NCBI GenBank assembly: GCA_025457885.1
Contig: JALOTN010000007.1
Location: 1,726-65,725 of the forward strand
Length of the DNA stretch: 64,000 nt
Origin: Thermoplasmatota archaeon
Lineage (GTDB): Archaea > Thermoplasmatota > E2 > DHVEG-1
Direction: 5' to 3'
The notes under the pieces were generated by a model. That model did no database searches. It was given only the letters and a program-made list of their open reading frames with translations, and was not told the origin of the DNA. A program made the position numbers and the translations under genes. Below, piece by piece: positions 56,577 through 57,962 of this stretch (position 1 is its first letter; every line of letters begins with the position of its first letter).

Positions 56577-57962
56577 TTATATAAGATATTTTTTTTCAAG
56601 AATCGTGGCTCTGTCCACTGTTGAGAGGATATAAGGGGCTTTTTCATCAAATCGTTCTACTTCTACGAGCCGTATTTGCAGCTGGGAACCTGTCTTTTCC
56701 TGTAATGCATGATGAAGAAGGGATAACGTGTTCTCTGCAGAACATCCTACCTCTCGGAAATGCTCATCGAAGAGAATCCGAAGCTCAATGGCATCGGTTC
56801 TATGCTGAACGATTTGAATACGTTGTATTTTGTTGACCTTCGTCTCGTATAAAACCTTCCCGATGCATTGTTCAAAGACTGACACCAATGCAAAGGTTCC
56901 ATCTGGTAATATAATCGAATGACTCTCTCGTCCGTGGATTCCTTGGAGGATGTCACCAGCAAGTCCACAGTGACATCCCTCTTTTGACATCGTCACCACA
57001 TCATCGATACCTTGGTACCGAAGAAGGGGGGTTCCTCTTCCATACAATTTTGTTACCACTAGTGAACCTGGTTGGCCGGATGGTACATCATGGTCGTCCT
57101 TAAGACATTCAAGAAACACCATGTCGGAGCAGACATGGTATCGCCCCTCTGTGCATTCAAACGCGATGATCCCTGATTCTGTCGCTGCATAGATATCAAA
57201 AAGGTCTGCCTGAAACACCTCTTGGACATACTGTCTGGAATATTGGTCAAAGACCGCACCTGATGTCCCAATCCATTTAAGTGCGATGTTTTCTCCAAAT
57301 CCTCTTGCTTTAAGGGTCGCAAGTCTCATCAGCACGAATGGATAACCAAGGATGACTTCAGGTTTGAATTTATTGATTTGTTCGATAAGAGTATTGGGTG
57401 TACTGAGGATGTCTAGGATTTGTATCTGTTTGAGTGGAAGGACATGTCTCATGGTTGATAGGATACTTTGAAGGAAATATTCGTTCTCAAAGCTGTTTTC
57501 GGAGAGGTCTAAGAGAAGTGACATCCTGGTTTTTTGCCAGGGGATACCATGGGTTTGAAGTGCTCGTCGGAACCCAAGCATGCTTCGTATCACGGTAGGC
57601 AGATCAGAATAAAGCGACAATGCTCGCCCGGTGGTTCCTGATGTTGCGGTGATAATTGCCGATTCTGTCTGAAACGACGGGGGTATGACGCGGGTCGGAA
57701 AATTTTGTTTTAGATCATCTTTTGTGATGAAAGGGAGTTTTTTGATATCCTCCAAACCTTGGATATCATGAGGATGGATGCCGGCAGCGCTGTATTTTTC
57801 TTTGTAAAGCGGTATGGTATAAGCGTACTCCACCATTTTTTTAAAGGAGCTATTTTGGTGTCGTAGGAGCTTCTCATGATTCGTTTGACGAAGAATGGAT
57901 AGGTCTTTCAGGTACCATTTCAGGACACGTCCGATGAACAGAGGGTTACACATTGGATTCAT
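56577..57962 (-). CDS. PaaK / coenzyme F390 synthetase-like adenylate-forming enzyme
   Basis: Has ATSGTTGRALSLY (P-loop-like AMP motif), DIKKLPFITKDDL and IYAATESG. ATGA overlap with the upstream methyltransferase. Confidence 0.75.
   Translation of the reverse strand: MNPMCNPLFIGRVLKWYLKDLSILRQTNHEKLLRHQNSSFKKMVEYAYTIPLYKEKYSAAGIHPHDIQGLEDIKKLPFITKDDLKQNFPTRVIPPSFQTESAIITATSGTTGRALSLYSDLPTVIRSMLGFRRALQTHGIPWQKTRMSLLLDLSENSFENEYFLQSILSTMRHVLPLKQIQILDILSTPNTLIEQINKFKPEVILGYPFVLMRLATLKARGFGENIALKWIGTSGAVFDQYSRQYVQEVFQADLFDIYAATESGIIAFECTEGRYHVCSDMVFLECLKDDHDVPSGQPGSLVVTKLYGRGTPLLRYQGIDDVVTMSKEGCHCGLAGDILQGIHGRESHSIILPDGTFALVSVFEQCIGKVLYETKVNKIQRIQIVQHRTDAIELRILFDEHFREVGCSAENTLSLLHHALQEKTGSQLQIRLVEVERFDEKAPYILSTVDRATILEKKYLI

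Follow-up and report, generated by a model that had tools for sequence, protein, structure and literature searches.

The adenylate-forming enzymes NatL2, AjiA1, ClxA, BagE/FevW and DdaG use a phenol or an amine as the acceptor for an acyl-adenylate, and we know of none among them that acts on a ribosomal peptide. The F390 synthetase FtsA provides a precedent for nucleotidyl transfer to a phenolic hydroxyl. Adenosine triphosphate (ATP)-dependent activation of carboxylates in peptides that are made by the ribosome and modified after translation (RiPPs) is carried out by the lasso cyclase (asparagine-synthetase-like), the graspetide ATP-grasp ligases and MccB (ThiF-like). To our knowledge, the modified ribosomal peptides of archaea are almost unstudied. 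The CapK/PaaK-like protein VpsH of Vibrio cholerae is genetically required for glycine amidation of the uronic acid GulNAcA; its substrate is a lipid-linked sugar, and the evidence is genetic (PMC13463779). Here, we analyzed a stretch of 64,000 nucleotides (nt) of contig JALOTN010000007.1 from a Thermoplasmatota archaeon (the window) and focused on a minus-strand gene (56577-57962) that encodes a PaaK/CapK-like adenylate-forming protein of 461 amino acids (aa), hereafter the ligase. The gene lies in an operon with two radical S-adenosylmethionine (SAM) maturases, a methyltransferase-TPR protein (MT-TPR) and two precursor peptides. In our estimate, there is an even chance that the ligase is a coenzyme A (CoA)-independent, adenylate-forming tailoring enzyme that acts on a co-encoded peptide together with MT-TPR, as suggested by comparative evidence and structure prediction.

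This reading is proposed because the ATP-binding motifs of the ligase are intact, because its membership in the operon is conserved across shuffled gene orders, and because a ligase followed by a small open reading frame (ORF) recurs in two independent clades. It is further proposed because the cassette lacks a CoA-dependent acyltransferase (none was found in the six-gene operon by Pfam/NCBIfam scans) and because the adenylate is used directly to build an amide or an ester by several relatives: NatL2, ClxA and AjiA1 (related by fold), DdaG and BagE/FevW (related by hidden Markov model, HMM) and VpsH (by genetics). The adjacency of ligase and MT-TPR at loci where the radical-SAM genes lie 5-8 kb off, and the replacement of the PaaK aryl-pocket loop by the acidic motif DLSENSFENEY, were also counted in its favor. 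In the proposed mechanism, the ligase would bind ATP through its A3, A5, A7 and A8 motifs, form an acyl-adenylate and, by analogy with these relatives, transfer its acyl moiety straight to a nucleophile, with no CoA involved. The co-encoded precursor peptide would be the substrate and MT-TPR the working partner, and the candidate sites would be the carboxylate at the Asp/Glu-hydrophobic end of the core and the hydroxyls of the upstream Tyr48 or of Ser57.

The ligase and its operon

By its predicted structure, the ligase is a member of the ANL/PaaK-fold adenylate-forming superfamily (PaaK/F390 synthetase/CapK). The AlphaFold2 model, built on a 33-sequence alignment, reached a predicted local distance difference test score of 90.8 and a predicted template modelling (TM) score of 0.89. 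Foldseek (E 6e-30) placed 4RVN, 2Y27, 6SIX and 9S3L at the top, with TM scores of 0.74/0.80 to 4RVN and 0.74/0.79 to 2Y27. The best structural matches (BT_0428, PaaK1/2, NatL2, ClxA, AjiA1 and 2-hydroxyisobutyryl-CoA ligase) all have the PaaK fold, in agreement with a profile search of PDB sequences. The ligase scores 28.6 bits against Pfam AMP-binding, just below the gathering score of 29.9, and its NCBIfam scores in the library scan are flat, weak and all well under cut-off. The best of them is the DVU_1553 family (NF045666; 106.3 bits, cut-off 300), followed by FlxY (98 bits), the PaaK models NF041878 (95.2 bits, cut-off 700) and TIGR02155 (85.1 bits, cut-off 646.3), an F390-synthetase-related model (84 bits), F390 synthetase itself (TIGR03335; 79.2 bits, cut-off 458.7), BagE/FevW (51 bits) and DdaG (21 bits). 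No AMP-binding_C_2 domain (PF14535) was matched in the ligase, in contrast to the other PaaK-like gene of the window (81 bits). Precomputed matches to CapK_C (PF27533), several of them marked weak, occur on many ligase homologs at 40-74% identity; this evidence comes from the homologs only, as the model is missing from the Pfam copy used on the window protein. The Joint Genome Institute (JGI) annotation of the homologs is phenylacetate-CoA ligase.

Conservation of the motifs was counted over 33 family members sharing 30-74% identity. The motif ATSGTTGRALSLY (residues 106-118, nt 57609-57647) contains the P-loop/A3 signature TSGTTGR (residues 107-113; 57624-57644), with T107 present in 32/33 and G109 in 33/33. 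The region 56922-57191 encodes the A5 motif YAATESG (E262), FEC..G.YH, the A7-like GTP..RY...D (R315, Y316 and D321), CxCG (330-333) and the A8 hinge G344-R345. In addition to G109, residues E262, R315, Y316, D321, G344, R345, F268, H276 and Q386 are invariant (33/33), and the CxCG cysteines C330 and C332 are kept in 30-32 out of 33. Since the AlphaFold2/PaaK fold is confident and the nucleotide motifs are invariant in all 33 sequences, the ligase is predicted to be an intact, catalytically competent adenylate-forming enzyme. The clade-specific DLSENSFENEY (residues 152-162; 57477-57509) occupies the sequence position of the PaaK aryl-pocket loop, where the ligase fails to align with PaaK; its positions are invariant within the RiPP-linked subgroup and differ in the paralog clades (D152 in 25/33), and from this sequence position we infer that it sits in the pocket. 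The A10 lysine is the residue required for adenylation in ANL enzymes. Its expected place is the C-terminal loop EKAPYILSTVD (56613-56645), in which K441 matches by pattern the lysine of the PaaK C-terminal ..LKAKRVID; each of the 33 sequences has at least one Lys or Arg in this loop, at variable positions. A complex prediction of ligase, precursor and ATP (score 0.01, mark 0.32) was used neither for nor against any reading. A search for longer, fused ligase forms (808-2305 aa) gave none; proteins of 800-970 aa carry AMP-binding matches only, and a fusion with a urea-transporter domain in one 704-aa protein is uninformative for the ligase, as are these.

The reading frame and its coupling to the methyltransferase gene, both claimed in an earlier note on this DNA, were borne out. 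The ORF with the above motif is real and, read on the minus strand, encodes 461 aa; on the plus strand, translation of 56577-57962 runs into many stops. The ATGA overlap was read directly at 57959-57962 (...GAT GTG AGA GAA TGA), where the MT-TPR stop overlaps the ligase start (ATG 57962-57960). All genes of the operon are on the minus strand, in the order precursor A1, radical-SAM/SPASM maturase A (rSAM A), radical-SAM/SPASM maturase B (rSAM B), MT-TPR, ligase and precursor A2. MT-TPR (57959-59266) combines a class I methyltransferase (N-terminal ~140 aa, LNLGCG) with a helical/TPR half (Pfam Methyltransf_11 and TPR), and its methyltransferase motifs are kept across 15 orthologs. Precursor A2 (56294-56512; 72 aa) starts 64 nt past the ligase stop, and precursor A1 (61428-61643; 71 aa from ATG 61643) has an LG..LGL leader and the core form GPPxYxGxxYGTISIxDF. 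rSAM B (59257-60351; Pfam Radical_SAM and SPASM) contains CxxxCxxC at residue 36; among NCBIfam models it scores best on TIGR03913 (228 bits), followed by TIGR04103 (221 bits), and reaches neither cut-off. rSAM A, assigned by Pfam/NCBIfam scans, is listed at 60317-61498 with a GTG start that adds 43 low-complexity residues (61369-61498), which overlap the 3' end of precursor A1 and occur in no ortholog; the orthologs align from about residue 44 onward only. The truer start is probably ATG 61369 (M44), which would leave a 58-nt spacer after precursor A1. Pfam/NCBIfam scans revealed no acyltransferase, thioesterase or paa genes in or beside the operon. Operon DNA occurs in wetland, sediment and freshwater metagenomes; the datasets listed for it are metagenome DNA, with no RNA datasets among them.

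Distribution and genomic context of the ligase family

A word-indexed search retrieved 237 relatives of the ligase, nearly all of 456-465 aa, and an exhaustive search of 50%-identity representatives yielded ~30 full-length proteins above 260 bits, followed by a drop to generic CapK/PaaK-like proteins. In GTDB species genomes, all 18 loci with >35% identity came from Thermoplasmata/Thermoplasmatota metagenome-assembled genomes, in a search that used 9 closer sequences and is thus biased toward close relatives; the next matches are bacterial CapK-like genes with 24-31% identity. Among 401 sampled genomes of the phylum, 79 carry the family in 1-4 copies per genome, and all 79 belong to four families: f1 (49/53), f2 (3/4), f3 (14/14) and f6 (12/12). 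On the basis of these searches, the ligase family is restricted to Thermoplasmatota. The window's own genome has three ligase-family copies, plus more distant PaaK-like genes. A quick maximum-likelihood tree, rooted on the window's other PaaK-like gene and supported by the Shimodaira-Hasegawa-like approximate likelihood ratio test (SH-aLRT) only, groups the Thermoplasmatota ligase family together (SH-aLRT 98) with three main groups inside, and places the bacterial CapK-like proteins in separate clades.

Radical-SAM genes were present in every ligase context examined. The window clade consists of 12 loci (SH-aLRT 100, 41-74% identity), with SPASM radical-SAM genes and YG-type precursors in 12/12 and MT-TPR in 11/12. 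The genes are arranged either as rSAM-rSAM-MT-ligase-peptide or as ligase-peptides-rSAM-rSAM-MT, and the co-occurrence at all 12 loci despite this shuffling upholds the earlier placement of the ligase as a true member of the peptide operon. In one subclade, a third SPASM radical-SAM protein (326 aa, ~26% identical to rSAM A and rSAM B) is encoded between MT-TPR and the ligase (L004 6988-7968; L014 3012-3983).

The sister clade (9 loci, SH-aLRT 99) has a different arrangement: the ligase lies opposite a divergently transcribed B12-binding radical-SAM gene and is followed by a gene for a conserved, Cys-containing protein of 54 aa. This small protein always ends in E-I or E-L, is devoid of Tyr and has no Pfam or NCBIfam match. 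Its gene was found in 60/401 genomes of the phylum; in 26 genomes of this survey it follows a ligase copy on the same strand at a distance of no more than 450 bp. The triad of a 438-aa B12-binding radical-SAM protein, a ligase paralog and the 54-aa protein is present on contig C53 of the window's own genome (L094 3112-6140) and at L015-L017, L019-L021, L023 and L083; it has the appearance of a conserved system for modifying a small protein. Because the sister clade independently keeps a different small protein downstream, the order of ligase followed by a small ORF can be regarded as a trait of the family.

The third group of ligases is found in clusters with UbiA prenyltransferases, B12-binding radical-SAM enzymes and methyltransferases. 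These UbiA-type contexts contain no obvious small ORF, and none convincing with an acidic-hydrophobic end. One of these clusters encodes a very divergent ligase-like protein (L085 2866-4167; 433 aa, 22% identity) that has no Pfam match and sits on a long branch. The deeper branches (L139-L143 and L018) are again tied to SPASM radical-SAM enzymes, MT-TPR and YG peptides. The ligase and MT-TPR genes are adjacent throughout L139-L143, including the two genomes (G125 and G313) with distant radical-SAM genes. In two genera, a gene for a type I phosphodiesterase/nucleotide pyrophosphatase (PF01663, ~510 aa) lies directly upstream of the ligase-MT-TPR pair on the same strand (L139 15989-17503 in G125; L140 3295-4848 in G313). 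At both loci, the stretch between this trio and three SPASM radical-SAM genes encodes M6-like and C11 (clostripain-like) peptidases together with a beta-helix protein of the NosD type. NosD-like right-handed beta-helix proteins are encoded within a few kb of the peptide clusters at L003 (14918-16087) and L004 (9625-11079) as well as at L139 and L140, a proximity that may be fortuitous where secreted beta-helix proteins are abundant in the genome.

Homologs of rSAM A occur in 27/401 genomes, including families f18, f22 and f38, which have no ligase-family member at all. The clusters of f22 and f38 encode a weak MT-TPR homolog (25-29%) and no ligase, and the window's genus also contains single-radical-SAM clusters with different precursors and with neither ligase nor MT-TPR nearby. 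Since the radical-SAM/peptide core also occurs without it, the ligase is, on gene content, a putative accessory tailoring enzyme that forms the most peripheral layer of the system.

The other PaaK-like gene of the window (50188-51489, plus strand) encodes AMP-binding and AMP-binding_C_2 domains with the motif SSGTTGVPV and is directly followed by a gene for a 221-aa ATP-grasp_5 protein (ACS-beta-like; 51486-52151, plus strand). The earlier note had taken it for a canonical phenylacetate-CoA ligase with an ATP-grasp neighbor and the gene at 56577-57962 for its diverged paralog. The motif and the neighbor were confirmed, but the label canonical did not hold, as the protein scores 437-442 bits on PaaK models with cut-offs of 646 and 700. 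Similarly, the two proteins are paralogs at the level of the superfamily, not close ones: they share 28% identity and occupy separate deep branches of the tree. The kinship of the ligase with F390 synthetase, which the same note had named as a member of the PaaK family, is also confined to superfamily membership, as its 79 bits are no better than its scores against PaaK, FlxY or DVU_1553. The trio of the PaaK-like, ATP-grasp_5 and adenosylhomocysteinase genes (50188-53594, plus strand) is syntenic in the relatives L001 and L006, and ahcY is also present in L008; the trio resembles housekeeping genes and has no connection with the peptide operon.

Precursor peptides

The alignment of 26 ligase-linked precursors shows an LG..LG(L/M/I) leader and a core of the form G-P-x-x-Y-x(4-5)-Y-G-x-x-S-I-x-(D/E)-(F/L/I), which in the window clade can be written G-P-x-x-Y-x4-Y-G-x-x-S. 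The invariant columns (n=26) are G19 in the leader and G44, Y48, Y53, G54 and S57, with P45 and I58 nearly so. Tyrosine phenols had previously been singled out as the only strongly conserved side chains of the cores, which is roughly right, S57 being invariant as well. In 23 of the 26 precursors, the last two residues of the core are an Asp or Glu and then a hydrophobic one; nine precursors end exactly at D-F or D-L, and the others carry tails of 1-20 residues. Multi-unit precursors (L007 3937-4272; L143 7970-8338; L108 1220-1435 and 3724-3978; L110 2658-2915) have either two full leader-core units per ORF or 2-3 repeated cores of the form D-x-Y-K-A-G-T-x-Y-G-T-x-S-x-x behind one leader. Two candidate features were rejected. 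The C-terminal alpha-carboxylate is not an obligatory ligase site, as the D-hydrophobic pair is internal in multi-core precursors and tails are common, and S-I-x-D-F is not a ligase recognition motif, as it is present in clusters without ligase.

Every ligase-linked precursor has the upstream Tyr, 4-7 residues before Y-G, whereas all of ~10 ligase-less ones lack it. It is also found in the precursor of genome G394, whose cluster consists of one radical-SAM gene, MT-TPR and the ligase. This correlation is suggestive of a Tyr-directed role but is confounded by common descent. The ligase-less single-radical-SAM precursors of the window's genus (L114 1314-1553; L116 2197-2436; L118 1091-1420) have an LG..LGL leader, a hydrophobic membrane-like segment and the end Y-Y-T-G-V-S-I-K-D-F-G-L-L-S-R-F-F. 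In family f22 (L124 and L126), the genes are arranged in tandem, and their membrane-like products of ~120 aa terminate with x-Y-G-V-F-S-x-x-R-R. The sequence X-Y-G has been described as a splice motif (PMC11414181). By motif comparison only, the invariant Y53-G54 of the ligase-linked precursors fits X-Y-G, and its place is taken by Y-T-G or Y-H-S in some of the ligase-less variants. Taken from its sequences, the radical-SAM peptide pathway of this locus would be RiPP-like, archaeal and undescribed.

Alternative functions and relation to known systems

Several observations weigh against CoA-independent activation on a peptide. The cores have no invariant carboxylate, as the three A2-type peptides lack the Asp/Glu. 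The S-I-x-D-F end recurs in ligase-less clusters and is hence not ligase-specific, and a free C-terminal carboxylate is not always available, given the internal D-hydrophobic pairs of the multi-core precursors. The A10 lysine is not fixed, K441 being kept in 10/33 sequences (plus two with Arg). Moreover, the UbiA/methyltransferase/B12-radical-SAM group of ligases, which lacks an obvious peptide gene, looks like a set of small-molecule pathways. This last group, whose clusters resemble small-molecule or lipid pathways, would agree with the ligase being an acyl- or aryl-CoA ligase that activates a free acid and never touches the peptide; that acid might, for example, be a Tyr-derived radical-SAM by-product (a hydroxyphenyl acid, for instance) or serve a different enzyme as acyl donor. 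The nearest solved structures, which are aryl- and short-chain-acid ligases (PaaK1/2, BT_0428 and 2-hydroxyisobutyryl-CoA ligase), and the JGI label of the homologs point in the same direction. We nevertheless consider a small-molecule CoA ligase unlikely: the PaaK equivalog cut-offs are missed widely, AMP-binding_C_2 is lacking, the hydrophobic aryl-pocket loop of PaaK is swapped for an acidic motif, no acyltransferase, thioesterase or paa gene accompanies the operon, and in each of two separate clades the ligase is still directly followed by a small ORF. Salvage of a by-product would also be unnecessary, because the radical-SAM/peptide core works elsewhere without such a ligase.

Nucleotidyl transfer in the manner of F390 synthetase, a role raised in the earlier note, seems to us more doubtful still. 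Here, the enzyme would use ATP or guanosine triphosphate to attach adenosine or guanosine monophosphate to the phenolic group of the upstream Tyr, or else to Ser57, and give a peptidyl-nucleotide phosphodiester. Such a reaction would suit cores whose invariant side chains are two Tyr and one Ser, with no invariant carboxylate, and in which the upstream Tyr tracks the ligase even in the one-radical-SAM cluster of G394; that correlation, however, is confounded by shared ancestry, and fewer phenols would be left if the radical-SAM enzymes consume Tyr, as a splicease would at Y-G. The PF01663 phosphodiesterase upstream of ligase and MT-TPR in two genera is likewise in keeping with a nucleotidylated product, but it is present in only 2 of ~20 clusters. 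The superfamily does contain F390 synthetase, and an unfixed A10 lysine would be compatible with this chemistry; against it, the ligase is no nearer F390 synthetase than other branches are (79 bits versus 459), no F390 synthetase match above cut-off exists anywhere in the genome, and the closest characterised relatives of the ligase all activate carboxylates. As a function of the whole family, nucleotidylation is further opposed by the Tyr-free 54-aa partner of the sister clade. The variable A10 position and the tight pairing with MT-TPR would also be consistent with a scaffolding or chaperone role without catalysis, in which the ligase holds the peptide or the MT-TPR/radical-SAM complex, but this is very improbable, as A3, A5, A7 and A8 are invariant over the 33 sequences, which is unexpected for a dead enzyme.

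A peptide-directed function can be extended to the family as a whole, a generalization that we put slightly below an even chance. The family would then comprise dedicated peptide- or protein-modifying enzymes with radical-SAM partners, near-universal in four Thermoplasmatota families: in the window clade, an ester, amide or nucleotidyl group would be formed on a Tyr-containing core with the participation of MT-TPR, and in the sister clade the 54-aa protein would be modified. If this is true, the ANL/PaaK fold would join the RiPP tailoring toolbox, and a well-known fold could prove to have a new use, in an ATP-dependent modification of peptides that is itself new. The automatic database label of phenylacetate-CoA ligase on these genes should be distrusted. 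As the ligase family is common in the phylum and has a consistent link to small ORFs and radical-SAM enzymes, it lends itself to a direct test of the hypothesis.

Compared with PaaK (Burkholderia cenocepacia PaaK1/2; 2Y27, 2Y4N and 2Y4O; TIGR02155), the ligase shares the two-domain fold, the N-terminal helical microdomain, the A3, A5, A7 and A8 motifs and the length, but differs in its low identity (18-28%), in the absence of AMP-binding_C_2, in the acidic motif at the aryl-pocket loop and in its location in a peptide operon without paa genes. CapK-type ligases resemble it through the PF27533 matches of its homologs, and bacterial CapK-like proteins are its next-nearest sequences (24-31% identity). 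The chemistry proposed for VpsH, in which a carboxylate is activated on a large substrate and an amide is formed without CoA, served as the model for the ligase. NatL2 (6SIW-6TM4), AjiA1 (6WUQ) and ClxA (9S3L and 9S45) have the same PaaK fold (TM 0.62-0.74), differing from the ligase in sequence (17-21% identity) and in their substrates, which are free small aromatic acids; BagE/FevW and DdaG, whose substrates are of the same kind, are weak HMM matches. By analogy, acyl transfer of this sort, with a phenol or an amine as acceptor, would suit the invariant Tyr and Ser of the cores. FtsA belongs to the same superfamily and has no specific relationship to the ligase, the window's other PaaK-like gene scoring higher on TIGR03335 (171 versus 79 bits). 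As is generally known, the lasso cyclase, the graspetide ligases and MccB have folds unrelated to that of the ligase; they fill the same logical role as the one proposed for it. Full-text literature searches turned up no paper that assigns a PaaK/ANL-fold enzyme to a RiPP pathway. The fold of the ligase and its general chemistry are known; the novelty lies in a subfamily specific to one lineage, in the systematic way in which radical-SAM enzymes and small ORFs accompany it, and in its place in an undescribed archaeal peptide pathway.

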